A model generated the notes under the pieces. That model saw only the letters and a program-made list of their open reading frames with translations. It had not been told where the DNA came from and did not search any database. Made by a program: the position numbers and the translations under genes. DNA of 64,000 bases, taken from the NCBI GenBank assembly GCA_951406725.2, contig OX597821.1, positions 118,792,001 through 118,856,000 on the forward strand, in the 5' to 3' direction. Shown one piece after another: positions 174-36,628 of this stretch. Origin of the DNA: Octopus vulgaris (Eukaryota). Position 1 is the first letter of the stretch; each line of letters begins with the position of its first letter.

Positions 174-373
174 TCATGGAAATTCACTGTCTAGATAATT
201 TACTGCGTCAGTACAATCAAATAACTTAAGAGCATTTCTGAGTGTTTCGTGTTTCTTTCGATCACATCTCTTGAACCATCTGTTGAGCATCTCGAATCTC
301 TGTTCATTAGTATCCTTTGGACAGTCACTGATGATAGTTTCCAGCTCAGTTTGTTTAATTCCTAATTCCCTTC
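174..373 (-). CDS. Terminal exon, rest of the death domain ([33 protein letters not shown]...[23 protein letters not shown])
   Basis: Acceptor ttttgcag. Death-domain pattern GR.LG.....I..D.P....EQ..EML..W......L..AL......D....L, stop TGA at 174-176. Confidence 0.88.
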
Positions 374-3300
374 CTGCAAAACATACAAAAATAATAAATA
401 ATTGCAACAACATTAAGAATAAAATAAGAGATGCATATTGCAGATTGTAATAAATATAACAACGATATTATATCGGGAGAGAAATTTAAAAAATAGGTAA
501 GAAAAATGAAAAATATTAGACATTGTTCTCTATTTCTAGGAATGGTGATTAAAAGATAACAAAGAAATTGAAATAAAGGATTGAAATGGAGAAATGTTTT
601 AAAAAGTATTGAAAATTACATTTGAGAGAATTTCTGGTAAAGAGATGGCAGGGAAAATGATTGTGTGGGTAATAGCGTATGAGAACCTAAAGAATCTATT
701 AATATCACTCAAAGAGTCACATTATCTCATCCATCTATCCATTTTCTCTACCCTCTATTCATAAAAGGGTTGTGGGGGTAGAGTCGCCAGGGAACCCCCT
801 TCAAAGTTACTTTCATATTACTGTCCAGTTGGATTCTCAAGCTTGACCAATTCTTTCTTGTGACAGTCTAATCTCATGTCCATAGAACTGGAATTGAGAC
901 CCCTCAATTCAGGGAAATAGTAGCTCAACCTGGAGAGACTCCCAACTCTCTGAGCTGTGCACCTCCTTTTGAGTAACAGATACCATTTAAAGGAATCCCA
1001 TTTCAGCTGCTTTGAATCATCACCTGATCAATACCTGGAATAGTCATCAGTGATGTCTCTCCTACTTCTACTCTCACTAATTAACAATTAAAATATATCA
1101 ACATTTAGAAATAACTTGAACTATCAATACCAGTAATATTAGGTACACCTGGACCAATTAAAATACAAGTGAGCATGACACCAAAATGACCTTAATTACA
1201 CAAAATACAAAATATAATACTGTTAGGTACACAACACATATTTTAAAAGACACCAACTTAACCATGTTGGGTTCATGACTCGTAATAAGGATTTCTTTTA
1301 CTGGACCAATGCCACAATTTAGAGAGAATCCGATAATGGAGAGGTTTTAGAGTAAAGCTAGCAAAGAGAAGAGTTTTAGTTTTGTACGAAAGAAGTTTTG
1401 TAGGAAAGAAGACGGGGTCACAACCATCTACACCATACACATGTAGACGCTTAGGGACTGAAGGAATCACTGCATCTACCAACCTCTACATCATCTGGGG
1501 AAGTTACCATATTTCATAAAAAGGTAGAAGGGGTTAATAGGGATTCTATACTGTGTATTCAATGCACACAATGGGAGATCTGGGGTCAGAGGTAGGTTGA
1601 TGGAGAGGAAGGAGTTTGTGAGTAGTAGATATACAGGAATAGTTAGTTGTAAGAATAACTGTGAAAGGCATGGACGAGAGTTTCTGTTACCTAGGTGACA
1701 TAATTAGGAGTGGGAGAGACTACTCTGAAAGTAAGGTGATTAGAGAAAAAGCTGAGGTGGCAAAATGTACATGGAGCTGTTATCCCTACTGACAAATAAA
1801 GAATTCTCTTTCTGAATGAAGGGTAGATTGTATGATGTATATTTGTAAAGTGCAGCGATGCATTGAATGTGGAGGATGTATGAAAACTGGCAAGAAATGA
1901 GGTGAGAATACTTCACGAGAAATGTAATGTTAGTGTATTGGAATGCTGGAGAAAAGATGAGCTGGAAGAAAAACTGGGTCTCAGTAGAATCAGGGAATAA
2001 TGGGAAGTTTGTATAAATCATACTTTCTGTTCTTACCCATTCACACAAAGAGAAATGGAATATTGTGATGTTCATGATTTCTAAATGATATTTGTATTGT
2101 AAAGGGTGAGGAAAAAATGTCAAATAAGAAATGAAATCCAGTTAAGTTTACCATATTTTAACATGTACAAGGAACCAATTTTTGTTTAAAATTAGGTTTA
2201 AAAAGTATGGGAGCTTCTTATACATGGATAGCATTATAATCCCTTACAAAACCTTATTGCCAAATTTTACGCCTCAAAATTTAAAACAAGGTAATATTTT
2301 TATAATTTCTGTTTTGTTTTATAATTTGTGTTTTGTTTCATTAACTTACAGCGCGGAGTTCAATCCACACGCAAAAACAATCAAAAATGGGGCCTGTCAA
2401 TTTAGAGACAAGACTATATGCTGACCTGGGGCTATAACAAGAGTAAAAAACAAACTGGTCAGGCGAGGGGCTACAACATGTCACACAAGAGGCACACTCT
2501 TGGGTTAACGACGTTGCATTTGATAATGAGATCCTCTTCTCCTAAGAGAAAGAATGATGCCGCACCCGGAACACTTTTCTTCTGAAGATTAAGGCAGATA
2601 TCTACCACAACCATGACAACAACAACCTACCAGTGAACAAAGTAAAAATCTAAAGAAACGAAACCATTGACATTAACTCACCTGTTTGTACATAAACAAC
2701 AACATATTTTAGATCCCTATTTTAAAAGAGAATATTAAATCTTTTGTGGCTTCAAATTAATCCATTTTACCAACCATGCAAACCTTGATTTTATGAAGTT
2801 TCTTCAATAGAATTACTTTGCAGTTAAACTTTCAATTGGAAATTAAAAGAATGGAAACTGTTCTCAATCATTCTAACAAACAGAAGCTCAAGTGAAGCCA
2901 AAATTTCAAAAAATCAATTAGGTATTAAATGCTCACCAACAAAACGCCAGTTACTCCCTAACTTCGTTGCCACTATATTGAGATGATTCTCCTCCAGTTT
3001 AACAGACTCTGAAAATAAAATATTTCCAAATTTTACACATCAAAATTTAATTTCTCTTTCTCTTTTATTAATGGTCTATATTTTGGCATTGTTATTCACA
3101 TCATCAACGGTCAACTGGTGGCCACTATGGGGTTCGACAGCATTTTTATACTTACCATAGTGACCCCATCTAATGACACAATGTTAAGGTCCACACCAGA
3201 ATGGACTAATCTTCATTTCCCTATTAAGATATCCTCTGTAATCAAATAATCTAGTACATATACCTGTTGAACCTCGCATTATTGCATTGAAACTACCTGA

Positions 3301-4234
3301 AATGGTTCAGCAGAAATGGGACTCAAAACATTATAAGCAAGATGAGGATATAGACCAAGCTGCAAGAACCAGATCTTGTATTTGTACAGTGCTTTTGACT
3401 TAACGATCGCTTTAAACCCATTCTCAGTTCGTGCCATGGTGCATAGCATATTCGTAAGCTTCTTATTGGTTTGTCTTTAACTTTTGGAATCGTTTCTCCT
3501 ACTACTTTGAACTCCACTTGCTTCTCAGGTCCTTTGACAAATGAATGTATTAATTAATTGCCTTAAAACTCCTCCTTGGGCAAGTGATTGATCCATACTG
3601 TCTACCCACAACTATATGTTAGAATTGTAATATCGTCCACCGTTGCCATCTTAGGCGATTCAATTTGAGCCATTTCTTCTGGTAAATATGCTAATCTAAG
3701 TAATATCTCCATAACAGACCCAAGCCAGATGACTGACATTTGGCAACCTGCAGCAATTCCAAGCCGATGCCAGTCTGTTGTGAAACATTCTGATGTCTGC
3801 CACATCTTGAAATTGGTACAAAAGCCCCTCATTAGATTGTCAATGTTCTCCAGTGTATAAAAGAAGTCCACTGCTTCCATCAACAAATCCTTTGGTAGAG
3901 GCCCATGAGTGTTTGCCAGATCAATTTATACAACATTGAAATCTTCTTGAGGATATGACAAAGGTCTTACTGGTTGGGCCACATCAAAATACTCCCAGGA
4001 CCATTAAAGAAGTGGTTGGTGTTAGGAAGGGCATGCCACCGGTGAAAAGCTGGAATGTCTTAAGTGAGAGATATTCTTCCACCAACGAATAAGAGCTGAC
4101 CAGGACAGTGACCACCCATCTAAAGCATGAGAGTATGGAAAACATGATTAATGATGAGTACAATATCATTGATTGTATTGAATCTTGTAGCCAAAATCTG
4201 TTTTGAAGAAAGAGAGAGAGAGAGAGAGAGGGGG

Positions 4235-4276
<42 letters not shown>

Positions 4277-6467
4277 CTTTGCTTATCTCAGTAGCAATCC
4301 AAACTCTTCTACTTTGATAAGAACAATGGATGTATTAAAAGATTTAGTATCAGTGAAGCAAAGACATGGGAATTGCTTTTGGAACACTTTTCATCTTAGG
4401 TCCACCAGATTATGTCAGACATCTGACTGAACAAAAACGGCAGCAACAACAACAAAAACAACAACAGCAACATCTGTAACCTTAGTAAAAGTGTAAAGAA
4501 AGAAAGGTCACTGACATTAACTCACCTGTTTCTACATAAACAACAACATATTTTAGATCCCTATTTTAAAAGAGAATATTAAATCGTTTGTGTCTTCTAA
4601 TTAATCCATTTTACCAACCATGCAAACCTTGATTTTATGAAGTTTCTTCAATAGAATTACTTTACAGCTAAACTTTCAATTGAAAATTAAAAGAATGGAA
4701 ACTGTTCTCAATCATTCTAACAAACAGAAGCTCAAATGAAGGTAACATTTCTAAAAATCAATTAGGTATTTTATACTTACCATTTTGCTGGTATTTACTC
4801 CCTAACTTTGTTGACTCTCCTTGAATATGCTTTTTCTCTAGTTTAATAGACTCTGAAAATAAGATATTTCCAAATTTTACTCATCATACTTTAATTTCTC
4901 TTTCTCTATTAATAGTCTATATTTTGTCATTGTTATTCACATCATCAATGGTCAATTGGTGGCCACTATGGTGTTGGACAGCATTTTTATACTTTCCATA
5001 GTGACACCATCTAATGACACAATGTTAAGTTCCACACCAGAATGGTCTAAACTTCATTTCCCGATTAAGATATCCTCCGTAACCAAATAATCTAGTAATT
5101 ATCACAGTTAATTATCACTTGATGTCACTGTTCTCTTCTTCGTTTTGTCTTTCTTTACTTATATCTGTGCCAAATCAATGACCTTGTCCTCACATCTCTA
5201 GACTTCACTAACCAGCATTCTTCTTGCTGCTTAATTCCAATGTCAACCAACTTAGTTCTGCAAAGGTCTTACCACAAACACATGTCACACTATTTCAAGT
5301 AGGATAAACACACACCTGATCTCTTTGTTGAAGGTTGTTGGTTGCAATTTTTAATTTTCACTGAACACATCACACTTCACCAGAATGTTCTCTGACTCAA
5401 GATATATCTGAAGACATTACAATGCTAGTCAGCTTCTCTGATAATTCTACCTAGGTAGAGCAGAAGACGATGACAGGTATCTTAAACCCCCAGTACACAT
5501 GCACAAAACCTCACCAACTACATATATCTGTTGATCCTCGAGTTATTGCATTGAAACTACTTGAAATGGTTCAGAAGAAATGAGACTCAAAACATTATAA
5601 GCAAGATGAGGGTATAGACAAGCTGCATGCACCAGATCTTGTATTTGTCCAGTGCTTTTGACTTAACTATTGCTTTTAACCCATTCTCAGTTCGTGCCAT
5701 GGTCCATAGCATATTCGTAACATCTTATACGTTTAACTTTTGGAATCGTTTCTCCTACTACTTTGAACTTCACTTGCTTCTCATGTCCTCAGACAAATGA
5801 ATGTATTAATCAATTGCCTTAAACCTGCTCCTTGAGAAAGTGATTGATCCATACAGTCTACACACACATATATGTTAGAATTGTAATATCGTCCACCGTT
5901 GCCGTCTTAGGCGATTCCATTTGAGCCATTTCTTCTGGGAAATCTGCTAATCTAAGTAACATCTCCATAACAGACCCAAGCCAGATGACTGACATTTGGC
6001 AACCTACAGCAATTCCAATTTCAAGACGATGCCAGTCTGTTGTGAAACATTCTGATGTCTGCCACAACTTGAAATTGTTACAAAAGCCTCTCATTAGATC
6101 GTCAACGTTCTCCAGTGTATAAAAGAAGTCCACCGCTTCCATCAACAGTTTCTTTGATAGAGGCCCATGAGTGTTTGCCAGATCAATTTATACAACATTG
6201 AAATCTTCTTGAGGATATAACAAAGGTTTTGCTGGTTGGGCCAAAGCAAAATGCTCCCAGGCCCTTTTTAGAAGTGGTTGGTGTTAGGAAGGGCATGCCA
6301 CCAGTGAAAAGCTGGAATGTTTTAAGTGAGAGATATTCTTCAACCAACGAATAAGAGCTGACCAGGACAGTGACCACCCATCTAAAGCATGAGAGTTTGG
6401 AAAACATGATTAATGATGAGTACAATATCATTGATTTTATTGTATATTGTAGCCAAAATCTGTTTTG

Positions 6468-6534
<67 letters not shown>

Positions 6535-8776
6535 TGCTTATCTCAGTAGCAATCGAAACTCTTCTACTTGGATAAGAACATTGGATATATTATAAGTTTC
6601 AGTATCAGTGAAACAAAGACATGGAAATTGCTTTTGGAACACTTTTCATCTTTACTCCACCAGATTAAGTCAGACGTCTGACCGAACAAAAACAGCAACA
6701 ACAACAAAAACAACAACAACAACATCAGTAACCTTAGTAAAAACGTAAAGAAAGGAGAATCATTGACATTAACTCTCCTGTTTATACATAAACAACAACA
6801 TATTTTAGATCCCTATTTTAAAAGAGAATATTAAATCGTTTGTGTCTTCTAATTAATCCAATTTACCAACGATGCAAACCTTGATTTTATGACGTTTCTT
6901 CAATAGAATTACTTTACAGCTAAACTTTCAATTGGAAATTAAAAGAATGGAAACTGTTTTCAATCATTCTAACAAACAAAAGCTCAAATGAATGCAAGGT
7001 TTCTAAAAATCATTTAAATATTTTATACTTACCGTCTTGCTGGTTTTTACTCCCTAACTTTGTTGACTCTCTTTGAATATCATTCTCTTCCAGTGTTAGA
7101 GACTCTGTAAATAAGATATTTCCAAATTTTACACATCAAACTTTAATTTCTCTTTCTCTTTTATTAATGGTCTATATTTTGTCATTGTTATTCACATCAT
7201 CAATTGTCAACCGGTGGCCACAATGGTTTTGGACAGAATTTTTATACTTTCCATAGTGACCCCATCTAATGACACAATGTTAAGGTCCACACCAGAATGG
7301 TCTAAACTTCATTTCCCGATTAAGATATCCTCCGTAATCAAATAATCTAGTAATTATCACATTTAATTATCACTTGATGTCACTGTTCTCTTCTTCGTTT
7401 TGTCTTTCTTCTCTTATATCTGTGCCAAATCAATGACATTGTCCTCACGTCTCTAGACTTCACTAACCAACATTCTTCTTGCTGCTTAATTCCAATGTCA
7501 ACCAAGTTGGTTCTGCAAAGATATTACCACAAACACATGACACACTACTTCAAGTAGGATAAACACACACCTGATCTCTTTGTTGAAGGTTGTTGGTTGT
7601 AATCTTTAATTTTAACTGACCACATCACACGTCAACAGAATGTTCTCTGACTCAAGAAATATCTGAAGACATTACAATGCTAGTCAGCTTCTCTGATAAT
7701 TCTACCCTTTTGGAGCAGAAGACGATGACAAGTGTCTTAAAACCCCCGGTACACATGCACAAAACCTAATCAACTACATATATCGGTTGATCCTCGAGTT
7801 ATTGCACTGAAACTATTTGAAATGGTTCAGAAGGAATGAGACTCAAAGCATTATGAGCAAGATATGATATAGAACAAGCTGCATGCACCAGATCTTGTAT
7901 TTGTCCAGTGTTTTGACTTAACTATTGATTTAACCCATTCTCAGTTCGTGCCATGGTCCATAGCATATTCCTAAGCTTCTTATAGGTTTGTCTTTAACTT
8001 TTGGAATCGTTTCTCCTGCTACTCTTAACTTCACTTGCTTCTCATGTCCTCTGAAAAATGATTGTATTAATTAATTGCCTTAATCCTCCTCCTTGAGCAA
8101 GTGATTGATCCATACAGTCTACCCACAACTATTTGCCTATCGTCTTCGTCTCATGTTAGACTTGTAATACCATCCACCATTGCCATCTTAGGTGATTCCA
8201 ATTGAGACATTTCTTCTGGGAAATCTGCTAATCTAAGTAACATCTCCATAACAGACCCAAGCCAGATGACTGACATTTGGCAACCTACAGCAATTCCAAT
8301 TTCAAGACGATGCCAGTCTGTTGTGAAACATTCTGATGTCTGCCACAACTTGAAATTGTAACAAAAGCCCCTCATTAGATCGTCAACGTTCTCCAGTGTA
8401 TAAAAGAAGTCCACCGCTTCCATCAACAATTTCTTTGGTAGAGGCCCATGAGTGTTTGCCAGATCAAGGCATACGACATTGAAATCTTCTTGAGGACATG
8501 ACAAAGGTTTTACTGGTTGGGCCACAGGAAAATGCTCCCAGAAGCATTCTAGAAGTGGTTGTTGTAAGAAGGGCAAGCCACCAGTGAAAAGCTGGAAGTT
8601 TTTAAGTGAGAGATAATCTTCAACCAACGAATAAGAGCTGACCAGGACAGTGACCACCCATCTAAGCATGATAGTATGGAAAACATGCTTAATGATGAGT
8701 ACAATATCATTGATTGTATTGAATCTTGTAGCCAAAGTTTGTCTTGAAGAAAGAGAGAGAGAAAGAGAGAGAGAGG

Positions 8777-8822
<46 letters not shown>

Positions 8823-11800
8823 CTTTGCTCATCTCAGTAGCAATCGAAACTCTTCTACTTTGATAAGAACAATGGATGTATTAAAAGATTTAGTATCAGT
8901 GAAAGAAAGCCAGGGAAATTGCTTTTGGAAACACTTTTCATCTTTAGTCCACCAGATTAAGTCAGACGTCTGACCGAACAAAAACAGCAACAACAACAAA
9001 AACAACAACAACAACATCTGTAACCTTAGTAAAAATGTAAAGAAAGGAGAATCATTGACATTAAATCTCCTGTTTATACATAAACAACAACATATTTTAG
9101 ATCCCTATTTTAAAAGAGAATATTAAATCCTTTGTGTCTTCTAATTAATCCATTTTACCAACCATGCAAACCTGGATTTTATGAAGTTTCTTCAGTAGAA
9201 TTACTTTACAGCTAAACTTTCAATTGGAAATTAAAAGAATGGAAACTGTTCTCAATCATTCTAACAAACAAAAGCTCGAATGAAGGCAAATTTTCTAAAA
9301 ATCAATTAGGTATTTTATACTTACCTTCTTGCTGGTATTTACTCCCTAACTTTGTTGACCCTCTTTGAATATCATTCTCTTCCAGTGTTACAGACTCTGT
9401 AAATAAGATATTTCCAAATTGTACATATCAAACTTTAATTTCTCTTTCTCTTTTATTAATGGTCTATATTTTGTCATTGTTATTCACATCATCAATGGTC
9501 AACCGGTGGCCACTATGGTTTTGGACAGCATTTTTATACTTTCCATAGTGACCCCATCTAATGACCCAATGTTAAGTTCCACACCAGAAAGGTCTAAACT
9601 TCATTTCCCGATTAAGATATCCTCCGTAATCTAGTAATTATCACATTTAATTATCACTTGATGTCACTGTTCTCTTCTTCGTTTTGTCTTTCTTTTCTTA
9701 TATCTGTGCCAAATCAATGGCCTTGTCCTCACGTCTCTAGACTTCACTAACCAGCATTCTTCTTGCTGCTTAATTCCAATGTCAACCAAGTTGGTTCTGC
9801 AAAGATCTTACCACAAACACATGACACACTACTTCAAGGAGGATAAACACACACCTGATCTCTTTGTTGAAGGTTGTTGGTTGTAATCTTTAATTTTAAC
9901 TGACCACATCACACATCACAAGAATGTTCTCTGACTCAAGATATATCTGAAGACATTACAATGCTAGTCAGCTTCTCTGATATTTCTACCTAGGTAGCGC
10001 AGAAGACTATGACAGGTGTCTTAAAATCCCCAGTACACATGCACAAAACCTCATCAACTACATATATCTGTTCACCCTCGCATTAATGCACTGAAACTCC
10101 TTGAAATGGTTCAGAAGGAATGAGACTCAACCATGCTGCAAGCACCAGATCTTGTATTTGTGCAGTGCTTTTGACTTAACTATTGCTTTTAACCCATTCT
10201 CAGTTCGTGCCATGGTCCATAGCATATTCCTAAACTTCTTATAGGTTTGTCTTTAACTTTTGGAATCGTTTCTCCTGCTACATTGAACTCCACTTCTTCT
10301 CATGTCCTTTGACAAATGAATGTATTAATCAATTGCCTTAAACCTCCTCCTTGAGCAAGTGATTGATAAATACAGTCTATCCACAGCTATTTGCCTATCG
10401 TCTTCGTCTCATGTTAGACTTGTAATACCATCCACCATTGCCATCTTAGGTGATTCCAATTGAGACATTTCTTCTGGGAAATCTGCTATTCTAAGTAACA
10501 TCTCCATAACAGACCCAAGCCAGATGACTGATATTTGGCAACCTACAGCAATTCCAATTTCAAGACGATGCCAGTCTGTTGTGAAACATTCTGATGTCTG
10601 CCACAACTTGAACTTGTTACAAAAGCCCATCATTAGATCGTCAACGTTCTCCAGCGTATAAAAGAAGTCCACTGCTTCCATCAACAATTTCTTTTGTAGA
10701 GGCCCATGAGTGTTTGCCAGATCAAGTCATACAACATTGAAATATTCTTGAGGATATAACAAAGGTTTTGCTGTTTGGGCCACAGTAAAATGCTCCTAGG
10801 ACCATTAAAGAAGTGGTTGGTGTTAGGAAGGGCAAGCCACCAGTGAAAAGCTGGAATGTTTTAAGTGAGAGATATTCTTCAACCAACCAATAAGAGCTGA
10901 CCAGGACAGTGACCACCCATCTAAAACATGAGAGTATGGAAAACATGATTAATGATGAGTACAATGTCATTGATTGTATTGAATCTTGTAGCCAAAATCT
11001 GTCTTGAAGAAAGAGAGAGAGAGAGAGAGACTTTGCTCATCTCAGTAGCAATCGAAACTCTTGTACTTGGATGTATTAAAAGATTTAGTATCAGTGAAAG
11101 ACAGACATGGAAATAGCTTTTGGAACACTGTTCATCTTAGGTCCACCATATTATGTCAGTTATCTGACCGAAGAAAAACAGCAGCAACAACAACAAAAAC
11201 AACAACAACAACATTTGTAACCTTAGTAAAAATATAAAGAAAGAAAAGTCACTGACATTAACTCATCTGTTTATACATAAACAACAACATATTTTAGATC
11301 CCTATTTTAAAAGAGAATATTAAATCCTTTGGGTCTTCTAATTAATCCATTTTACCAACCATGCAAACAAGATGAGGATATAGACCAAGCTGCAAGCACC
11401 AGATCTTGTATTTAACTATTACTTTTAACCCATTCTCAGTTCGTGCCATGGTCCATAACATATTCCTAAACTTCTTATAGGTTTGTCTTTAACTTTTGGA
11501 ATCGTTTCTCCTGCTACATTGAACTCCACTTGCTTCTTATTTCCTTTGACAAATCAACGTATTAATTAATTGCCTTAATCCTCCTCCTTGAGCAAGTGAT
11601 TGATCCATACAGTCTACCCACAACTATTTGCCTATCGTCTTCGTCTCATGTTAGACTTGTAATACCATCCACCATTGCCATCTTAGGTGATTCCAATTGA
11701 GACATTTCTTCTGGGAAATCTGCTATTCTAAGTAACATCTCCATAACAGACCCAAGCCAGATGACTGATATTTGGCAAGCAACAGCAATTTCAAGACGAT

Positions 11801-12245
11801 GCCAGTCTGTTGTGAAACATTCTGATGTCTGCCACATCTTGAAATTGTTACAAAAGCCCATCATTGGATCGTCAACGTTCTCCAGTGTATAAAAGAAGTC
11901 CACTGCTTCCATCAACTATTTCTTTTGTAGAGGCCCATGAGTGTTTGCCAGATCAAGTCATACAACATTGAAATCTTCTTGAGGATATGACAAAGGTTTT
12001 ACTGCTTGTGCCACAGTAAAATGCTCCCAGGACCTTTTAAGAAGTGGTTGATGTTAGGAAGGGCATGTCACCAGTGAAAAGCTGGAATGTTTTAAGTGAG
12101 AGATATTCTTCAACCAACGAATAAGAGCTGACCAGGACAGTGACCACCCATCTAAAGCATGAGAGTTTGGAAAACATGATTAATGATGAGTACAATATCA
12201 TTGATTTTATTGAATCTTGTAGCCAAAATTTGTTTTGAAGAACGC

Positions 12246-12282
<37 letters not shown>

Positions 12283-15200: not shown

Positions 15201-15848
15201 TGTATCCTTTATAAGATCCAGCGGCATCATATTCCGTTTGTTTCTGTGGTAAAAGTTGGCTCCATTGTCGGCCAGATAACAAGCCACTGCTAGGCTTGAA
15301 AGCTTGCCTCCTTTGCTAAGCTGGAGCTTCTTGTAGTACTTCAAATGATGGAATATAAAAAAGACAAGTACAATATTACACAAATATAAACAAAATCATA
15401 ACATCAAGTCAAATACAAGAAATATAATGGAAATTATATATGTTAAAAATAACAGAGAACACACAGACTTATCCAAATATATCAACAATGTTTCCATAAT
15501 TAATAAAGAAACATCTTTGGATGATGAAGGTGAAGTAAAAGAAGTAAGAATTGGTGTCACGGTTGAGGAAACACACCAACACATTCTAGTTGATAAACTG
15601 TTGAAACTGTTAGTCTGACAGACAATTCCAGTAATGGAGGGAGAAGGGCATTTGACTGCCAGAATAGCTTCTTCGTATCAAAGTGGACATTTCCACAACA
15701 CAAAGATGACCATCAAATGTCTGAAATACAGTCACAAATCTGTAGAGACCGTTACTCATGTGGGAATCAGTGAGTTGCTTCAAGTGCGCAAAATTTGACT
15801 GTAAATACTGTTAGATCTACTGATGGTTAGATGTTGATGTATTTGTAT

Positions 15849-25000: not shown

Positions 25001-28000
25001 GATCGCTGCAGTAGAAGTTTAAAAGTCTCTGGCTGTCCATTTATACATGCCTGATGTAAAGCTGTGTTGCCGTATTTATTTACCATACGGACGTCAATGT
25101 CAGACTTCTTCAACAGATGTTTAACGATTTCTGTGTGACCATCAGCACTGGCCAGATGTAATGGCGTTTCACCATCATTATTCGCCGCATTTACGTTAAT
25201 GCTAGACTGCTTCAGTAGATGTTCAACAACCTGTAGGTGTCCCTTCATAGAGGCGAGATGTAGTGGTGTGTTCCGATCATTATCCTCAGCATTTACATCA
25301 ACATCAGACTGCTTCAGTAGATGTTCAACAGTCGCTAGGTGTCCACGAGCGGAAGCCAGAGATAGAGGTGTGTCACCGTCCTTATTCCTTACGCTGACGA
25401 CCATTCCAGATCGCTGCAGTAGAAGTTTAAAAGTCTCTGGCTGTCCATTTATACATGCCCGATGTAATGCTGTGTTGCCGTATTTATTTACCATACGGAC
25501 GTCAATGTCAGACTTCTTCAACAGATGTTTAACAACCTCTGTGTGTCCATCAGCACTGGCCAGTTGTAATGGCGTTTCACGATTATTATTCGCCGCATTT
25601 ACGTTAATGCTAGACTGCTTCAGTAGATGTTCAACAGTCGCTAGATGTCCCTTCATAGAGGCGAGATGTAGTGGTGTGTCCCGATCATTATCCACAGCAT
25701 TTACATCAACATCAGACTGCTTCAGTAGATGTTCAACAGTCGCTAGGTGCCCCTTCATAGAGGCGAAGTGTAGTGGTGTGTTCCGATCATTATCCTCAGC
25801 ATTTACATCAACATCAGACTGCTTCAGTAGATGTTCAACAACCTCTAGGTGTCCACGAGCGGAAGCCAGAGATAGAGGTGTGTCACCGTGGTTATTCTTT
25901 ACGCTTACGAACATTCCAGATCGCTGCAGTAGAAGTTTAAATGTCTCTGGCTCTCCATTTATACATGCCCGATGTAATGCTGTGTTGCCGTATTTATTTA
26001 CCATACGGACGTCAATGTCAGACTTCTTCAACAGATATTTAACGATTTCTGTGTGACCACCAACACTAGCCAGATGTAATGGCGTTTCACGATCATTATT
26101 TGGCGCATTTACGTTAATGCTAGACTGCTTCAGTAGATGTTCAACAACTTGTAGGTGTCCCTTCATAGAGGCGAGATGTAGTGGTGTGTTCCGATCATTA
26201 TCCTCAGCATTTACATCAATATCAGACTGCTTCAGTAGATGTTCAACAGTCGCTAGGTGTCCACGAGCGGAAGCCAGAGATAGAGGTGTGTTACCGTCCT
26301 TATTCTTTACGCTGACGACCATTCCAGATCGCTGCAGTAGAAGTTTAAAAGTCTCTGGCTGTCCATTTATACATGCCCGGTGTAATGCTGTGTTGCCGTA
26401 TTTAGTTACCATACGGACGTCAATGTCAGACTTCTTCAACAGATATTTAACGATTTCTGTGTGACCACCAGCACTAGCCAGATGTAATGGTGTTTCACGA
26501 TTATTATTTGGCGCATTTACGTTAATGCTAGACTTCTTCAGTAGATGTCCAACAACCTCTGTGTGTCCACGAGCACAGGCCAGGTGGAGTGGTGTATCAC
26601 CATCGTTATTTTGATGATTTACCTGAAAAATCAATAAAAAACACTAAAAATAGTGGCTAGAAGGGGACGGGTAGAACCCTTAACGCATATTCAGAAACAG
26701 AATGTAAGGAATAAGGTGGAATGATGATGGCCGGCCTTGAGTAAGTAAATGAACTTTGTATTGAGTTTATATTGTACTTACACACACACACACACATACG
26801 CACACACACACACACACACACATACATACACACACACACATTCTCTTATTTTCAATTTTGTAGCAAGCAATTATGTCTAGATTATGGGAAAGAAAATGAA
26901 GAGAGTGTGTTCTGGGGATTGATCTAAAACTCATCAAATATTTTTAAAATTTTATTCTATCAATATAATTATCATCTACACCCTCAAAAATGAAGAATTT
27001 TCCTTAAAGAATATGAATCATTGGAAAGTTGTGAGGAAACAAAATCTTGGGGCATTAAACTATAAATAGATTAACATGCTGTTTATTTTCGTAATATAGT
27101 GTAAGTTGTCTTTAAAATTATGAAAGTACATTTCAATAGAAACTCGAAGTAACGACAGTGACATCTTGTAATGTCCTGTAAATGGCGTATGTGACTTACA
27201 AACGTATCCAATACATAAACAGGCAGAAATTTAGTGTAACATAAAAGTCGTACGTATAATTTATATAGGATGAAAAGGGTCACATTAAGGAGAAAACATG
27301 ACAGTCATGGATGACCGAAATGAGATTTGTGAATAGTTTTTCACAATCTCCAAATTTGTTTCGCTCCACACGGCCATGAAGACACGATGTAAATAAAACA
27401 TTATTAATCCCGTTCTGTTACATAATTTTCTTTTTGCCGAACATCGATCGCCCTTCTTTAATTTGTGTCCAGATGCTGTCAGTGTTTGGATACAGAAATC
27501 TTAGACAATGGTTGACAACTTCATGAGTAGACAACTTGCCGGGACCCACATAAAAAAGCCTATCCATTTGTTATGTGAAGGAATGAAGGGTGACATCCAA
27601 AGCGAGGAGGGACGAGGGATGAAATTCTAATGTTTCACACTGATCAATTCCGGTTTCTATAGCAACATATTTTAATTCTTTGACGGACAATTTGTTTTAT
27701 GTAGGATGTCATCGCTACCTAATATCATGGAGAGTCCTAGAAAATTCAGACCCCTACATACACAGGGGCAAGTGTTGTAGACTGTGCATAGCCAAACGGG
27801 CGAGGATATTAAAGGACTCCGTCGACCTGGGGACACCCTTAACTCCAGAATAGAAGACTTCTCACCCAGTTGGCACTTCAGGAGATTCCTGCTGGCACCG
27901 TGGGATCCATAAGAAAACAGAGTCGATTACGAATAACAACCAAAGGAAGACAATTCCTGTTGCTGACGTAGGGTAACGATGCCCTTTTCTTCTCCATTTT

Positions 28001-29529: not shown

Positions 29530-32500
29530 TGTATCCATACATATGGCCATAATAAGTCTAAGACTGATGATGACAGTTCTAGTCCTTCATTAATTCATTT
29601 TTGACAAAACTGTATAAAATTATTTTACTTTTTGCAGTTTATGTAGAATTGTTTTCCCTTTCGAATGATATAGGCGTTATATATCTTTCTACTATTTGAA
29701 TAATTTTAATGTGCAATAAATTCAAATGATTAAAAATTGTCGACAAAAAGAATTCAAGACCTTTTGTGTAATAATCAAGCATTGTTACAGAAGCATCTTT
29801 CGTTATCAGAAAGCCATTGTAGTATCAACCCAGTCACTCGGTGAAAGATCGTGTTGCTTCAGCGGCAAAATGTGTCCTTCATGAATATTAGCAAGCAATC
29901 AGCATGCAGCAAAAGAGGCTTGCGTTCAAGCATGGAAGCTTTACCAAGTCAATAGCCAATACAAATTTCAGCAAAGAACGGGTGCTCCGAGACAAACAAC
30001 AGTACAGGCAGATCAGAGAATTCATAGGATCTCTGTAGGTAACCGAACGCTAACAACAGTGGACAGTTATCTGATGAGAGTGACATCAGCTATACACCAG
30101 AAACTGTCAGAAACCACCTGAAAGAATTTGGACTGTTCGGCCGGATCTCTCGAAAGAAGCTGGTAATTTCTGAGACAAACTGCTAGAAGTGGATCAACTT
30201 TGCTAAAAGCTATATTGAACAGACGGCCGAAGACTGGTCAAAAGTTCTTGATAGCGGCAAGCCTTGCTTCTGCATCTTTGGATCGGATGGAAAAACTTAT
30301 ATTAGATTCCGTCCAACTGAAGAATTCTGTGTGTCGAGAAAATGAGGCAAGCGGGTGGTTAGTTGGAGTGAGGTGGGGGTCAATTGTGTGGGTCGCATTC
30401 AGCAGCTTAGGTGTTGGTCCAGTTGTTGATGGCAGACTGAACAGTGTCAGCTGTCTGCAATTAGTAAATGAAAATGTGCTGCCATATTTAAATAGTCAAA
30501 TGCTACTGGGATCTATTTTGCAGCAGTACAATTGCCCCGTTCTTAATGCTAGGAAGGTTTTGCAATATTTTGAGCGCAATAATATGGAGGTTGTTGAGTG
30601 GCCTCCGCAGGGTCCAGATTTGTATCCAATAGAAAGTTTGCGGAATTATGATTCTAAAAGAGTTCATGCTAAAAAAAACCACCAAATGTGTCCCTGTTAT
30701 GTAATTTTATTGAAGGAATTATGGCAGAATATTCTCAGTGATTTTTATCCTCATTTGTCGAACTCCATGGCCCACCATTTTAAGGTCATAAAAGAGAATA
30801 ATGGTTATGGAACTAAATACTGATAATAAATTTTTGTTGATCATTTGTGCCGTAAATTTTCAGTTTAAATAAAATAATGTTGGTACAGTCTTAAACTTAT
30901 TTTGCTGACAATTTTTTATCATTTGAATTAATTGCTCATTAAATTTATTCAAAGTGTAGAAAGATATATAATGCCTCTATCATTAGGAAGAGATAAAAAT
31001 TCTATATACACTGTAAAAAAGTAAAATAATTTTATACAGTTTTAATTAAAATAAATTAATGAAGGAATAGAGCTGTCATCATATATATATATATCTAAAT
31101 GGCGGTGCCCCAGCATGGCCACAGCTTGTGAGCTGAAACTAAATGAAATAAATAAAAAAAAAATATATATATATATATAAAGGTAAATTTCTTAATTTGG
31201 TTAATAGAGATATATGATCCTAGCAGGTACCGTATTTGCTTTTCCTGGTTAATATTGGTGGCTAACCTCAGTGAGTGTAGATAAACTCCAGTGAGTTTAT
31301 TTAACTATTCCCTGATGACCTTCCCATCGGTAAATCCATATGTCTCTAGGTTGGTGGTAGAGAAGAAATACTGAACGAATAACGAAGGAGAAACGAGATT
31401 TATACATCCAGGTTTTATTTTGCAGTTAATCACATCTTTCCATGTTTGTACCTACATATGTTTCTGCTGCAAGTCAGTGCACACTGCAAGTTTTGCATCT
31501 TGCTGTGCAGGTTAGTGTTGATTACGGATGCTGCTTCTTTAGGGTACCATGAACTGCATTTCAGATTCCATCGGAACTAAATACAAGTCCAACCAAAATT
31601 GTTTATACATGTAGTGTTAGTATTCTAAAAAATAGCCTAAATTTTGAACTTTCCAACTCTACATACATAGACACATGCATATACACTCACTGACCTGTAA
31701 CATGTTGTTTGCTGAGCCATTTAACAGAAATTCAACTACATCTCTACAGTTCTTCTCCACAGCTGTATGGAGTGGTGTGTTGCCTTGTAAGTCCTGCTTG
31801 TTAATATTGATTCCCTTGGAAACCAGAAGGGCCACAGCATCACGCTTATTGCTGAAAGTAAGAAATATAAACATCACAGACATTGACATAAGAATTACAT
31901 TGAATCTACACGCATGTTCAGTACATAAAAATTAAACATACAGAAGTGTAAGTAATGTATAACACCACCCCAATATTTTCTGATTTATAAGGTACACCCG
32001 GAAGTCAACCTTTGCATTATATGGGTAGACTTCAGCATGTTCTGGAAGCAAAAGAACAGGAAGGGTGGCTAGGTTGATGGGGTGTAAGGAGAGATTGCAA
32101 GGGTGTACGGAGAAAGTAAGGGGAAGTTAGAAATGGAACAGGGGTGCGAATATGCAGAATGAGGAACAAGGGTTTATGGAGGAGATATCCAGTGGAAGTT
32201 GAGGGTGAGTATATAATGACTAGAGACTGAGAGTAGATGATGAGTAAAGATTGGAAAATGATAGTATAGAAATGAATGTTGTGGATGGTAGAGGATTGAT
32301 CAATGACTCATATGAGTTGGGGAAGGTCAGGGGGGTTAGGTGCTGATTGGCAGAATAGGAGGGTGAAGAGCAACAGGATAATAGAAATACTGTAGACAGG
32401 AGAAGGATGAGATAAAGGGAGATGATGTGTGTATGTGGTGGGTGTAGGCTACAAGAGTGTGAGTGGAGAGAAATACTGGGAGGAAGAGTGAGAGATATAT

Positions 32501-33944
32501 GTTAATAAGAAAAAGTCAACAAGAAGAGATTTAGTGGAAAGGAGAAAGGGAGTTAATTTCGTAGCATATAAGGGAGAAGGGTGATCAATGCAAAATGTGA
32601 GTGGAGAGGGACAATGTTAAAAATGAAAGATGGATGTTAAGTGAAGTGGTTCTGGCAGGTGAGAAAGATAACTGCTTTCACAGAAAAGATGATAAAATGT
32701 GTAGTTCTCTCCTCATTCAACTACAGCATTAGAATAATGTACTTAGATATATGATAGATAATGAGGGGCTGGAGAAGAAGTTTTGATGAGAAAATTAAAT
32801 AAACGGCCTAATTGTGTATATAAATATTGTATTTCTGAAATTCAGTTTTGCTGAGATGGTTTGGTTTCCTTGAGCATAACATGTTACCAATCAATCCATC
32901 TTCAACCCTAGCTTCATTCCGTTCCAGTCTTCGTATGTCCTCTGCCCGAGGTTCGTGTCTCACTACCATACACCATTGCCGTTTGAACACAAATATCATA
33001 CATTCTACCTTTTTCTCTAAGAGGGAAATTTCTTTCTAAATACACAGTTAGAAACTCTCTGAACTTTCTCCGTCCTATTCTTATTCCGTCAACTCTGACA
33101 ATTTTGTGTGACTGTTCTTTTCAATTTGATACAAGTCTTTATTCTTCAGTTGTCCATTCTTACTCTGTGTTGACTGTTTTTTTCTGACAGTTTATTTCTT
33201 TGAAATTTCTGTCTTCCGATGAAGTGGTAAAAAGTTGCCACAAAAACAATTGTAAAGAATGAAATTTGGAATAAATACTTCTCACTCTTATTACAAAATA
33301 TGGATTTGTATTCTATGGATATTGCAAGCAACGAACATAGATATTGGAATTGTCTTCATAGCTACATTTCTGGGATTGTAACAGACTTTACTGTGTGCAT
33401 GTATGTGTGTGTCTGTGTGTCCAAAGTATCTCCAAAGCAACATAATTTTGGAAAGATCTATTTTGACAACAGATCACCAAAATTGTTTTTTATGATTCAA
33501 AACTAAATCATGGAGAAAATAAGAAAACGATGTTGTTGGATATTACTACCATATTGTCATCGTGTCACACTGCCATTACTATGGCATATTTGGACATTTG
33601 ACCTGTTTGGAATTGGAAGAAATTTAGAAACACAACAAATCTGGAGATTTTAGTCAATTCTGAACTTACCACTCCACAGCATGATCAAGAGCTGTTTTGC
33701 CATCTCCACCCTTCATATCCAAATCAGCTCCAGCCTCGATTAAGAAATTTATAAGATCTGTTTTGCCCACTTGGCAAGCTGCCATCAGATATGTCACACC
33801 TTGTGAACTTATTTCGTTAATCTGAAGTGAAGAAAGCGAAGGCATGTAAAATATATTAAAGAGAGAAGAAGAGAGAGTACGGAAGAAGATGCTTGGGTGA
33901 GGATATAGGGATATGAAAGAGAAAGAAAGATGAAGAAGAAAGAT

Positions 33945-33995: not shown

Positions 33996-36628
33996 CATAC
34001 ATACACACACATATATATGTCATATTGGATGGTTTCCCTCAAACTCAGATTGGACTTAGAATTCCGGTCGTCCTAAAAGGGCCAGGAGAGTTCATATGTA
34101 CATATACACTCTACATCTCCAGTCTGGAATCTTCATTTTTCTTTTTACCAGAATATCAACTTACTGGAAACTTCCAGAGATGTGCAACTACACAAATACC
34201 CTCTCTCACTCATTTATCATATCTTAAATGTATTGCTTCTCTGAGCATCAACACACAAAAATCTTTCGTTTCTGGCAGCTAACTTGCTAGAATTCTACAG
34301 ATTTATCCACCATCTTTCCAACAACATTTCTGACCACCTCTGGAATTCAATACTTCTACCATTCCAGACATGCTTATAAAATCAAAAATAGCCAAGCTAC
34401 AATGATTTTCAGAAACTTTTGTTTCACATTAAAAATTGCCAAAGCTTGGAACAAACTATCTACGTTGGTTGTTAGTTGATCCCTTCAAAATAGCAGACTT
34501 CCTGAAATTCATTATCACTACTTCTGATGCTCCTATGCACCCGTTCCTCTTTCTATCCCTTTCAATGCTCCCTTTTCTGCCTATGGGTGTCTTACCCTAT
34601 GTACTATGTCATACACATTATGCTGCCATGGGTGTCTCTCTCTACATGACATTGTGTTGCTTTCTGACCTTACATGTGATGGGGAAAGATCCATAATTAG
34701 GGGAATCATACAAATCTACCAATTCATTTTAAAGGAAAAAGCGTTTCTTATTAAACGTAGGATGTCTGTCTTAGTTACACCCTCACTTTTGTCTGACTGA
34801 AGTGGTGGGGGAAAATCACTTCACAGATCCCCCAGTATATTACTGTTACATTTGATATCAAATAGGAAGCGAAAGAAAACACTGAAAAGATTTCAAGTGT
34901 GAGACGCTGACAAGAGACACGCTGCTAAATATACAGAGACCATCTGAACAAACCAACTGTAGAGATTAGACCATAAGATGGTGTGTAAAGTAATTGAATA
35001 GGTAAAGATCTATAACGGGTGAAAACCCTTAGGAATAATTGTGGTGAGTTGATGCATAAACTCAGGAAGACATTGAAAACCTCTTTAAGTTGGTCATTGA
35101 AGCTATTACAAAGGAAATATTTGTGACTTGATATCTGTGGGAAGTTATGAAAGACATCAGGGTCTGCTAAATATGTCCAAAGTGTGAAAAAGTAGACGCA
35201 AAAGAAAGAAAGAGTGACAGAGAGAATTATAATATTAAGAAAGCAGGGAGTAGTTTGAGGAATCTTAATAAGGCAGCAGTATCAGGGCTTGCATTAGTTT
35301 GTAGTCATACGGTATGTAAAAATGTGTGAGTGGTTCATACCCAACTGTATTACAGCTGTACAGATAAGCAACACTATCAACTTCACCTGGAGGAAAACAC
35401 CTACCCTCACTAACTGGCAGACATTCACCCACCGTTGAAATACATGTCTGATGGTCAACAAAAAACGTAAGGATTGTTTCTGCATTTCACCATCTGTCAG
35501 CTCTTTTCCCTCCCAAATTAGAGCCTAGATTTCTGGTCTCTTACCAAGAATTATCTCCATAAATTAAGCAGAATCCTTTTACCCACCACTCTCTAACTGT
35601 GGAGAGGCTCTATACCTGTAATTCTCAAAAATTTGCTATGGCCCCTTTTTCTTTTGCTAACAACTTTTCAAAAGCTTTTTCCCTTGCTATAATTCAGTGT
35701 CCCTCGTTTTAAATGTATAAAATACCAGGTGAAAGTATTTTCTTTCTGGGTCCCTGTCTTGACATGGGTGAATACTAACCACAGGCCCACCCCACAATAA
35801 ATGAATATTTGATACATCACCCCTTCACTTTAGTTACTGATTGAACCTTTACTCAGGTAAATATTATTTGTGTTTCATATATACGTACTCCCATTTGTTC
35901 CTTGGTCCCCAGTCCTCATAAAATTTTCCACAGCCCCCAACCAGGGGTAGTATTAATCTCTTTGGAAAAGGCCTGCTCTATATTCTTGTAGAGAGTATCT
36001 CATCTGCTGACTACCAACCTATTATTCGAATGTCCAATATTTCAAATATGAAGTAAAAAGTCATAAACAGCCATCATCTTCATCCTTTCGGTATCTTCCT
36101 CTATTCAATGAACTCCAGTATAGTTCTGTAAAGCCAGATCGAGCAGATGGTAGAGTCGATTCCTATGTGACACCCCAGTGTTTTCATATATTTGACAGAA
36201 AAGAGAAATGGTGTAACCCTTGACATCAGTAAAACTTTCAATTGTTTCTGGCGAGAGAACGTCATGACAAAGTCACCATCCATCTACTGGCTCCATCTGT
36301 TTCTCATCTCTTGGACTGAATATTTCCTGCCAGAATACTCCATTGCAGTGTGTGATGATGGGCTTCTCTCTCATTCACATTCCATCAACTCTGACATGCT
36401 TCAAGGTTTAGCTAAATATTTATGAAATCTAGTAATGATGATTAGAGATGAAAGAAAAGAAATACCTGTGTTTATTTAGGAACAATTAATATTGTGTATA
36501 AAATAGCAATCAACTTTGAGAAGACAATAAACAGAACAACTTACTTTTTGTGAATTCTTTTTAATATATTCTTGAATATTTTGAGTGTCACCAAGCAAAA
36601 GTTTACTTATATTCTCATCAAATTCCAT
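174..36628 (-). CDS. Spliced gene: Mind-bomb-derived ankyrin repeat / RING-HC / death-domain protein (13 coding exons, 1554 aa with all cassette exons)
   Basis: Manual splicing of exons 36628-36545, 33821-33670, 31851-31695, 26622-23408, 22551-22515, 17487-17278, 15338-15160, 13735-13593, 9396-9325, 7104-7033, 4852-4781, 3008-2937 and 373-174. All introns are GT-AG, phases match at every junction (0,2,0,2,0,0,2,1,1,1,1,1), total 4665 nt with no internal stop. The motif [26 protein letters not shown] followed by a RING resembles the MIB1/MIB2 ANK-RING junction. Confidence 0.85.
2937..3008 (-). CDS. First death-domain exon ([24 protein letters not shown])
   Basis: Acceptor ttttcag, donor gtgagc. 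Supplies the L..VA..LG..W..V helix 1-2 motif of a death domain and joins in frame to GRELG of the last exon. Confidence 0.85.
3260..3945 (-). mobile_element. Decayed non-LTR retrotransposon RT fragment (HERO / RLE-clade-like), array unit 1
   Basis: DLANTHG...[20 protein letters not shown]...VDDITILT resembles the RT motifs LDLANAYGS / GI..GC.IS / F.DD. Frameshifts and stops present. Confidence 0.7.
4781..4852 (-). CDS. 72-nt phase 1-1 cassette exon, derived copy ([24 protein letters not shown])
   Basis: Acceptor ttttcag, donor gtaagt, open frame. Confidence 0.65.
5100..6210 (-). mobile_element. Decayed HERO / RLE-like RT fragment, array unit 2
   Basis: ORF 5858..6145 [22 protein letters not shown]...VDDITILT. 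Confidence 0.7.
7033..7104 (-). CDS. 72-nt phase 1-1 cassette exon, derived copy ([24 protein letters not shown])
   Basis: Acceptor tttacag, donor gtaagt, open frame. Confidence 0.65.
7350..8490 (-). mobile_element. Decayed HERO / RLE-like RT fragment, array unit 3
   Basis: ORF 8151..8735 [15 protein letters not shown]...[12 protein letters not shown]. Confidence 0.7.
9325..9396 (-). CDS. 72-nt phase 1-1 cassette exon, derived copy ([24 protein letters not shown])
   Basis: Acceptor tttacag, donor gtaagt, open frame, paralogous to exon 2937-3008. Confidence 0.65.
9635..10750 (-). mobile_element. Decayed HERO / RLE-like RT fragment, array unit 4
   Basis: ORF 10409..10687 with the same RT motifs. 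Confidence 0.7.
11369..11980 (-). mobile_element. Decayed HERO / RLE-like RT fragment, array unit 5 (truncated unit)
   Basis: ORF 11646..11915 with the same RT motifs. Confidence 0.7.
13593..13735 (-). CDS. RING-HC (C3HC4) finger exon
   Basis: CLLC-x9[13 protein letters not shown]8-CPKC, MIB/IAP-type spacing. 143 nt, phase 2 to 1, acceptor cag, donor gtaag. Confidence 0.9.
15160..15338 (-). CDS. Last ankyrin / linker exon of Mind-bomb type (YYKKLQ...[13 protein letters not shown]...MMPLDLIKD...FPPP)
   Basis: 179 nt, phase 0 to 2, donor gtaagt. Resembles the MIB motif IACFLAANGADL..RNKKGQSPLDL. Confidence 0.85.
16041..16237. repeat. Inverted repeat, ~75-bp arms with ~46-bp spacer
   Basis: ttcaaacatataagggatggcc...ccaaaccactaat (16041-16115) is the near-perfect reverse complement of attagtggtttgg...ggccatcccttatatgtttgaa (16162-16236). 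Confidence 0.9.
16487..16940 (-). mobile_element. tRNA-derived SINE (octopus-type) with internal (CA)n(TA)n
   Basis: Minus-strand head agtggctgtgtggtaagtagc...gggtccagtccc with A/B-box-like motifs, and a (aagagta)n-like tail. Near-identical copies at 38551 and 57612. Confidence 0.85.
17278..17487 (-). CDS. Ankyrin exon ([20 protein letters not shown]...GNNCLHLAV...VLDK)
   Basis: 210 nt, phase 0 to 0, acceptor ...cacaaag, donor gtaagt, two ankyrin motifs. Confidence 0.85.
18900..19150 (-). mobile_element. RTE-type LINE C-terminal fragment
   Basis: [31 protein letters not shown] resembles the RTE RLRWFGHV motif. Confidence 0.6.
19678..21990 (-). mobile_element. Decayed RTE-clade LINE with (GAT)n 3' tail
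   Basis: ORF pieces [14 protein letters not shown]...NYRGIKLLD...[19 protein letters not shown]...VNVAKTKVL and [20 protein letters not shown]. (cat)n at the low-coordinate end. Confidence 0.85.
22515..22551 (-). CDS. 37-nt exon completing an ankyrin repeat ([13 protein letters not shown])
   Basis: Strong polypyrimidine tract ending in ttttag, donor gttagt. Provides the phase 2 to 0 bridge needed between the flanking exons and supplies ankyrin helix 2. Confidence 0.8.
23408..26622 (-). CDS. Giant single exon encoding 31 complete 34-aa ankyrin repeats plus the start of a 32nd
   Basis: ORF 23404..26634. Acceptor ttttcag before 26622, donor gtaagt after 23408. TPLHLA / TALHRA / TPLSLA motifs recur every 34 aa (102 nt). 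Confidence 0.95.
28215..29440. repeat. Large imperfect palindrome, ~600-bp arms with ~20-bp spacer centred near 28808
   Basis: ggtcacgtgtttcagtctt (28731) pairs with aagactgaaacacgtgacc (28862). ttatccgagc (28358) pairs with gctcggataa (29286). cattctctttt (28237) pairs with aaaagagaatg (29411). Confidence 0.85.
29540..31081 (+). mobile_element. Degenerate Tc1-like DNA transposon with ~200-bp IR/DR-type terminal inverted repeats
   Basis: tgatgacagttctagtccttcattaatt...caagac (29568-29760) mirrors gtcttaaac...aattaatgaaggaatagagctgtcatca (30888-31081). ORF 30200..30823 has [13 protein letters not shown] and the terminal GYGTKY. Frameshifted upstream. Confidence 0.9.
31695..31851 (-). CDS. Ankyrin exon ([31 protein letters not shown]...NNMLQ)
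   Basis: Acceptor tttcag, donor gtcagt, 157 nt, phase 2 to 0, GNTPLH motif. Confidence 0.88.
33670..33821 (-). CDS. Ankyrin exon ([19 protein letters not shown]...[10 protein letters not shown])
   Basis: Acceptor cag, donor gtaagt, 152 nt, phase 0 to 2, ankyrin consensus. Confidence 0.88.
35500..36420 (+). mobile_element. Highly decayed LINE (CR1/Jockey-like) RT fragment
   Basis: [13 protein letters not shown] resembles ALDISKAFDRVW. Heavily disrupted. Confidence 0.4.
36545..36628 (-). CDS. First coding exon ([28 protein letters not shown])
   Basis: Polypyrimidine acceptor (tttctttctttttctag) before 36645, ATG at 36628, donor gtaagt after 36545. Phase 0 joins in frame to INEISSQG of the next exon. 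Confidence 0.75.

Follow-up and report, generated by a model that had tools for sequence, protein, structure and literature searches.

A Mind bomb-2-derived family of ankyrin-RING-death domain genes in Octopus: candidate variable intracellular sensors

The closest described relatives of the gene reported here are the Mind bomb proteins. According to the available passages of a study of human MIB1, its last RING alone transfers ubiquitin, the ankyrin repeat (ANK)-RING1-2 part is inactive and dispensable for Notch signalling, and the second RING of MIB2 is the homologue of the last RING of MIB1 (bioRxiv 10.1101/2024.03.01.582834). Passages of another paper report that ubiquitylation of cFLIP by MIB2 requires RING2 and not RING1 (PMC7815719). 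Here we describe a gene of Octopus vulgaris predicted to join a long ANK array and a RING of the first kind to a death domain (DD). The gene lies on the minus strand of a stretch of 64,000 nt (contig OX597821.1, positions 118,792,001-118,856,000; 'the window' below) located ~50 kb from a scaffold end.

The gene has 13 predicted exons. They are given below in window coordinates, together with a tandem duplication that overlaps them.

36545..36628, minus strand: exon 1, AG|ATG start, degenerate first ANK; corresponds to the 3' part of the MIB2 exon preceding the ANK block
33670..33821, minus strand: exon 2, ANK, 152 nt, phase 0-2 (MIB2 counterpart 149 nt, phase 0-2)
31695..31851, minus strand: exon 3, ANK, 157 nt, length and phases equal to those in MIB2
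23408..26622, minus strand: exon 4, 3,215 nt, 31 full ANK units of 102 nt and one partial unit
22515..22551, minus strand: exon 5, 37 nt, finishes an ANK
17278..17487, minus strand: exon 6, ANK, 210 nt as in MIB2; MIB1 carries an extra intron here
15160..15338, minus strand: exon 7, last ANK, of MIB type, and cap
13593..13735, minus strand: exon 8, C3HC4 RING equivalent to MIB2 RING1, 8/8 zinc ligands, end C-P-K-C-Q
9325..9396, minus strand: spacer S1, decayed copy of DD exon 1, 50/72 nt identical, phase 1-1
7033..7104, minus strand: spacer S2, 48/72 nt identical to DD exon 1
4781..4852, minus strand: spacer S3, 48/72 nt identical to DD exon 1
2937..3008, minus strand: DD exon 1, LGxxW motif retained
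174..373, minus strand: DD exon 2 and stop codon, 2 residues shorter than 12 aligned paralogue exons
2604..12586, no strand: tandem genomic duplication, units of ~2.27 kb, 82-91% identical, bearing the spacer exons

Joined, the exons make 4,665 nt, i.e. 1,554 amino acids (aa) and a stop codon, with no internal stops; AG/GT ends are present at every junction of this predicted splice. In a Pfam scan exon 4 shows 31 Ank stretches (E 2e-248) and exons 2, 3 and 6 also match Ank; exon 8 matches zf-C3HC4_3 (E 2e-9), and exon 13 matches Death (E 7e-6). A preliminary description made from the letters of the window had proposed a 13-exon in-frame ANK-RING-spacer-DD gene with 'more than 35' ankyrin repeats. 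Frame, exon ends and Pfam matches bear this structure out, and ~37 repeats are counted if the atypical flanking ones are included. A methionine at the position of exon 1 opens at least seven RefSeq-type paralogue models. The nearest named proteins to exon 7 are models from O. vulgaris and O. sinensis (86-90% identical). Pfam gave no NACHT or NB-ARC match in the nine exon translations scanned, the other exons being of 84 nt or less, and no signal peptide or membrane segment is apparent in the family protein sequence.

The preliminary description had also suspected an origin from a Mind bomb gene, and this can now be narrowed to MIB2. The canonical octopus MIB2 (C26:2.51-2.54 Mb) encodes MIB-HERC2, ZZ, REP, ANK and two RINGs; octopus MIB1, with three RINGs, is located at C13:72.6-72.8 Mb. 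Between the first ANK and the RING, both included, the gene and octopus MIB2 each have eight exons, which end in phases 0,2,0,2,0,0,2,1 in both (8/8). Two exon lengths are identical (157 and 210 nt), two differ by one codon, and the boundary of exons 4 and 5 falls at a different residue. In the exon-6 region MIB1 has an extra intron. Over exons 6-8 the gene is identical to MIB2 at 76/177 residues (43%) versus 51/174 for MIB1. A tree was built from 30 rows and rooted on MIB1 (the MIBs were those of octopus only, and four rows without a RING pattern match were left out). In it the 25 family rows form one clade (support 96/95), closer to MIB2 than to MIB1. Its sister is P0031 (99/90), a protein of O. 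bimaculoides with the order ANK-RING-RING and with neither REP nor DD. The REP-ANK-RING-RING proteins of the C26-type cluster fall outside this pair. Because the eight exon phases match and the tree sets the family beside an octopus ANK-RING-RING gene, we conclude from gene structure and phylogeny that the family derives from MIB2 and not from MIB1.

As the preliminary description had anticipated, the N-terminal substrate domains appear to be lost. A search of the 76.9 kb that separate the gene from the scaffold end upstream of it yielded no exon for MIB-HERC2, ZZ or REP (best E 0.5), a search with REP (Pfam PF18346) gave no match on the chromosome of the gene, and paralogue models start at exon 1. 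At the other end, the C-terminal coiled coil and the catalytic last RING of MIB are replaced by spacers and the DD, so that the DD stands where the remaining RING would be, in agreement with Pfam, exon order and the contig joints given below. The comparison suggests that MZM was lost, then REP, and that the DD then replaced RING2, an order inferred from the extant forms. All forms of this stepwise domain turnover are found in octopus: MIB2, REP-ANK-RING-RING, ANK-RING-RING and ANK-RING-DD. The retained region (ANK and RING1) is the part dispensable for the Notch role of MIB1.

MIB2-like genes that encode REP repeats, ANK and two RINGs are clustered at C26:0.73-1.66 Mb and 2.48 Mb. One gene of the cluster has three REPs; neither ZZ nor MIB-HERC2 was matched in the 50 kb examined. 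The cluster is a second expansion of MIB2 in octopus and likely represents an intermediate.

In single-exon genome searches, all of which give lower bounds, exon 7 matched 129 times, the RING 70 times and DD exon 2 136 times. A DD exon on the same strand within 50 kb downstream accompanies 101 of the 129 exon-7 matches. Of these 101 pairs 86 are of spliced type, a lower bound for the family that supplies the count of paralogues called for by the preliminary description; 78 of the 86 have no stop in either of the two exons tested, while 15 pairs are intronless. Two small chromosomes, C29 and C31, hold 62 of the 86 spliced-type copies. Another 16 are on the ten largest chromosomes (C1-C10), 10 of them within 0.3 Mb of a scaffold end.

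In a profile search with 119 matches, the named matches that combine RING and Death all belonged to O. vulgaris, O. sinensis or O. bimaculoides, and Octopus was also the genus of each of the 30 representatives examined; squid and cuttlefish are thinly covered by such collections. The family had been presented as possibly cephalopod-specific. It is indeed large and lineage-restricted, but the named members found are from Octopus only. Many carry database labels such as 'MIB2-like' or 'ankyrin-like'. No long homologue (449-2000 aa) of the RING-DD region was present among 388 candidates, which is weak evidence. Among the clusters listed for the ESM Atlas none combined ANK, RING and Death; RING with DD had no usable feature match, and small clusters lie outside this search. 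The literature searched holds no description of the family, though subscription papers or supplements could list the expansion; it is also absent from the keyword passages of PMC9068888, PMC10700109, PMC8166818 and PMC6522055.

Two further sets of loci belong beside these counts. Tandem intronless, stop-riddled copies of the 3' end of the family (processed pseudogenes) are located at C1:216,930,000-216,965,000 and C1:102,708,000-102,734,000; the array at 216.93 Mb has a period of ~3.59 kb with copies 97-98% identical. These copies show that ANK, linker and DD were joined in an mRNA, and they imply expression in the germline. Long open ANK exons (frames of 554 and 730 aa) were seen in or near family loci at C26:16.30 Mb and C29:21.77 Mb; these are probably more independent array expansions.

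To follow the joining of the 3' exons we mapped assembled contigs from four of 20 listed public runs to window positions 1-15,500; that the runs are RNA is a guess ('RNA?'), contig depth was not used, and 15 of 19 contig joints were listed. Contigs of run X1 contain intron-skipping joints with canonical ends between RING and S1, S1 and S3, S3 and DD exon 1, RING and DD exon 1, and the two DD exons. The S1-S2 joint is present in X1, X2 and X7, i.e. in three studies and three of the four runs. An S2-S3 joint is not among the 15 of 19 listed; since S1 and S2 are identical at 68/72 nt (94%), the S1-S3 joint may stand for it. Paralogues were considered as a source of the spacer joints and ruled out: other genome loci match the S1 region at 83% at most and the reads required 93%, therefore the joints are assigned to the locus itself or to a closely similar allele. 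As far as the contigs are RNA, RING and DD are thus joined either directly or through spacers, of which there can be at least two. The difference in spacer number reflects alternative splicing or allelic copy number. The joining of exons 1-5 is predicted from splice signals, frame and full-length paralogue models, e.g. P0015.

The copy in X1 differs from that of the reference: in its last exon five amino acids are changed, one more codon differs silently and 6 nt are inserted. X1 and the O. sinensis model P0267 also carry 11 additional codons between exons 7 and 8 (window 13735-15160). The assembly lacks this piece, and the 24 extra X1 letters have no match in it at up to two mismatches. This points to a presence/absence polymorphism of an exon or to a copy missing from the assembly.

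Exon 4 is organized as a higher-order repeat of four units (408 nt), with units of the same class 88-100% identical. It also contains hybrid units, the mark of unequal crossing over. The number of repeats in the ANK exon differs between paralogues (~3-4, ~6, ~25-28 or 31). The two nearest paralogues (A and B) lie in opposite orientation at C31:763-779 kb and 826-843 kb and are 91-95% identical to the gene around exons 7-8, the RING exon being identical in one of them. They have neither exons 2-3 nor spacers, their ANK exons are separate monomeric arrays ~50% identical to the gene in protein, and their DD exon 2 is just 31-34% identical. These arrays (C31:775,611-778,287 and 827,612-830,695) have ~25-28 units each and hypervariable binding-face positions. 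In the assembly, A has one frameshift and B two, due to pseudogenization or sequencing errors. Since the RING exon is identical to that of one paralogue but the ANK and DD parts are much older, the gene is a mosaic. ANK arrays expand separately in each gene, by unequal crossing over. Of the two independently varying modules proposed in the preliminary description, one is the ANK exon; the other is the linker between RING and DD.

That linker measures 21-135 aa across 24 database models and frequently consists of short repeats. The three 24-aa spacers of our gene had been taken for a module of their own. The linker does vary, but the spacers are duplicated, decayed first DD exons that have lost the tryptophan and the hydrophobic core. 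Identity among the spacers, and between them and DD exon 1, is 67-82% (94% for S1-S2), against ~90-95% for the flanking introns; partial upstream units of the ~2.27-kb duplication are without the 72-nt exon. Judging from these identities, the spacer exons have escaped homogenization of the tandem units. Positive selection on the spacers was considered and ruled out: they differ from DD exon 1 by ~30% at silent and replacement sites alike, with no non-synonymous divergence (dN) above the synonymous one (dS).

Change in the ANK arrays is not spread evenly. We looked at six positions on the binding face, which we take to be those randomised in DARPins. In crude variant counts these positions carry 16/42 replacement changes in paralogue A (p 0.003; omega, the dN/dS ratio, ~2.9), 32/85 in paralogue B (p 4e-5; omega ~2.0) and 22/68 in this gene (p 0.007; omega 0.73 vs 0.37 elsewhere). 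A similar pattern of change on the concave face is reported in the available text on ANK arrays of fungal NLRs (PMC4986451). The parallel with HET-E-type receptors drawn in the preliminary description thus holds for diversification of the binding face, which is weaker in this gene than in the two paralogues. DD exon 2 also appears to diversify in one subfamily, with omega ~2.3 in seven C29 paralogues (p 0.016; simple variant counts).

By sequence and by a paralogue's structural model, the DD is closest to the CRADD/PIDD/RIPK1-like class with a six-helix death fold. The best PDB matches of one paralogue's DD are RIPK1 (E 8e-7) and PIDD (E 2e-5), and the model of paralogue P0016 (pLDDT 82.5) superposes on the RIPK1 DD (root-mean-square deviation 1.6 over 90 columns) and on the MIB1 ANK. 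Against ten other octopus DDs, the family profile scored 51 and 50 bits for CRADD-like, 47 for PIDD-like, 32 for FADD-like and <1 for MyD88-like domains. An octopus RIPK1 DD was not found among 24 Pfam matches (52 candidates) and is hence outside this comparison. Core residues of the DD are invariant in 29 aligned members. A DD tree recovers the family (64/87) on long branches and does not resolve the donor. A complex predicted for the P0267 DD (residues 178-268) with an octopus CRADD-like DD scored 0.01, which is evidence neither way.

Two loci with related domains were observed. A single-exon FADD-like gene (DED and DD) is located at C26:2,421,482-2,422,060, ~90 kb from MIB2; nearness to MIB2 by itself was not accepted as a sign of DD origin, as the 32 bits of this gene are below the scores of the CRADD- and PIDD-like DDs. 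Two CRADD/RAIDD-like copies (CARD and DD) are found 39 kb apart at C14:75.560 and 75.599 Mb, with the DD region 78% identical.

Taken together, we give about an even chance to the family being one of variable cytosolic sensor-adaptors. The ankyrin array would bind foreign or altered protein; the DD would then nucleate an assembly of PIDDosome or RIPK1/FADD type leading to caspase or NF-kB signalling, and the optional spacers would set the reach from the ANK-RING rod to the DD. Ligand binding, the DD partner and the immune role are all inferred. As background, available passages state that human MIB2 itself acts on RIPK1 and cFLIP (PMC7815719). More tentatively, and with somewhat less confidence than in the general idea, the family could be a NACHT-free repertoire of ~90 intracellular receptor genes made from the dispensable middle of MIB2: a DARPin-like library whose arrays are reshuffled by unequal crossing over and exon swapping and linked through diversifying DDs and optional spacers to PIDDosome-type death. 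The family would bear on how cephalopods recognise diverse pathogens without adaptive immunity, with ~90 fast-changing genes unrecognised behind 'MIB2-like' and 'ankyrin-like' labels in three octopus genomes.

Several observations weigh against a sensor role. There is no NACHT or NB-ARC switch, which leaves the off-state of the DD without explanation, and RING1 is described as dispensable or inactive in human MIB1/MIB2 in the parts available of the two papers (PMC7815719; bioRxiv 10.1101/2024.03.01.582834). The six binding-face positions were fixed after the variability table had been seen, and the counts ignore recombination. Omega at these positions stays below 1 in this gene, and both paralogues with omega >1 are the frameshifted ones, with omega 0.8-1.0 at their other positions. 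Purifying selection acts on DD exon 2 in eight C31-type paralogues (omega 0.35), and yet this exon differs by about two thirds between the gene and its nearest paralogues, so that one fixed partner for all members is unlikely. Finally, the expansion is partly passive, because the family yields tandem processed pseudogenes.

The best-surviving alternative, to which we give a rather small probability, is that the proteins are inhibitors or decoys, which would cap assemblies of CRADD/PIDD/RIPK1/FADD or titrate them, or would serve as bait for pathogen effectors attacking death domains. Such a role would fit the replacement of precisely the catalytic last RING of MIB2, a protein described as anti-apoptotic in mammals in passages of PMC7815719. 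It would also fit the existence of database models without DD exon 1 or exon 2, the diversification of DD surfaces in one subfamily, and the five amino-acid changes and 6-nt insertion that separate the DD of the locus from that of an expressed copy. However, a pure decoy would not need a separately diversifying ANK face, and the invariant DD core in the 29 aligned members speaks against it.

Slightly less probable still is that the family expanded by a birth-and-death process, for the most part neutrally, at unstable chromosome ends and on small chromosomes, with arrays that would grow by slippage and serve no variable recognition. The clustering near scaffold ends of 10 of the 16 copies on the ten largest chromosomes, and of the window itself, is what this explanation predicts, as are the frameshifted paralogues, the 15 intronless decayed copies, the mosaic structure and the absence of dN above dS in the spacer exons. 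It does not account for the 3.2-kb ANK exon remaining open with an omega of 0.37 in its scaffold, for the 78 of 86 pairs free of stops in the two exons tested, for the presence of the family in three Octopus species, for ANK change clustered by position rather than scattered, or for spacer exons less alike than the introns around them.

We consider it improbable that the family consists of substrate-variable E3 ligases, in which ANK would replace MZM/REP as the receptor, RING1 would now be catalytic and the DD would oligomerise the RING or dock on death-receptor complexes. All eight zinc ligands are kept in this gene and family-wide, the RING exon is the best conserved exon between close paralogues, and dimerisation is reported to raise MIB1 activity in the accessible text of the MIB1 study, although the same text finds purified MIB1 ANK-RING1-2 inactive (bioRxiv 10.1101/2024.03.01.582834). 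At the E2-contact positions named for MIB1 RING3 the gene keeps only two of five (L and P), with M->P, I->K and R->Q at the others. The end C-P-(I/M)-C-R, as in the catalytic MIB1 RING3, is found in 7 of 37 distinct family RINGs. The ligase role assumed in the preliminary description is accordingly weakened: it is doubtful for this gene because the retained RING is MIB2 RING1, which shows no ligase activity in human MIB1/MIB2, and because the gene lacks three of the five residues that contact E2. Here RING1 is probably a structural remnant; the minority of paralogues with a canonical E2-binding surface may be active ligases.

A code for identity or development outside immunity (neural, germline or allorecognition), following the logic of the octopus protocadherin expansion, is very improbable: germline transcription of some members, the function of MIB proteins in Notch signalling (available passages of bioRxiv 10.1101/2024.03.01.582834) and the neural ties of other clustered cephalopod expansions (passages of PMC9068888) agree with it, but the family has lost the MZM/REP region, which binds Notch ligands, neither a signal peptide nor a membrane segment is apparent, and the DD points to death-fold signalling.

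Other elements were seen in the window. A LINE reverse-transcriptase remnant with a weak RVT_1 match (E 0.002) lies in intron 5 (20286-21910, minus strand). Frames at 30167-30820 (plus), 43272-43463 (minus) and 52111-52917 (plus), without Pfam matches, are presumably Tc1/mariner-like remnants; broken frames at 39229-41275, 54135-54608 and 63214-63801 (all plus), also without Pfam matches, we take to resemble Penelope-type reverse transcriptase/GIY-YIG. A tandem repeat of 145 bp (three copies, 95% identical) occupies 60920-61353.

Among known systems, MIB2 shares with the gene the ANK-RING1 block, the exon phases, exon lengths and 43% identity over the last ANKs and RING. MIB2 has MIB-HERC2/ZZ/REP, the coiled coil and the catalytic RING2, while the gene has none of these and a DD instead; the family further differs in its variable ANK number, up to ~37, and its copy number of at least 86. 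With PIDD1/CRADD and RIPK1 the DD class is shared by sequence and fold. PIDD1 also combines N-terminal repeats with a C-terminal DD. LRR-ZU5-UPA, CARD, kinase and RHIM are theirs and absent from the family. ANKDD1A/B, ankyrins and DAPK share an ANK array with a C-terminal DD, and ANKDD1 clusters are the look-alikes in the Atlas; as listed, these are without RING and of low copy number, whereas the octopus ANKs are MIB2-derived. The ANK-RING order is shared with the plant XB3/XBAT ligases, whose listed clusters have no DD. Molluscan BIR-DD-RING IAPs, as described in passages of PMC8917759, combine DD and RING in an expanded mollusc family, but possess BIR domains that the octopus family lacks, and the octopus RING precedes the DD. 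Fungal HET-E/HNWD-type NLRs share near-identical repeats within a gene, unequal crossing over, variation in repeat number and concave-face change. They have NACHT/NB-ARC and the family has none; the family is animal, E3-ligase-derived and has its repeats N-terminal and its effector C-terminal. By the defining features of each, as read from sequence, the protein is neither a Mind bomb ligase nor an NLR: its descent is from the Mind bomb ligases, and its evolution resembles that of the NLRs.

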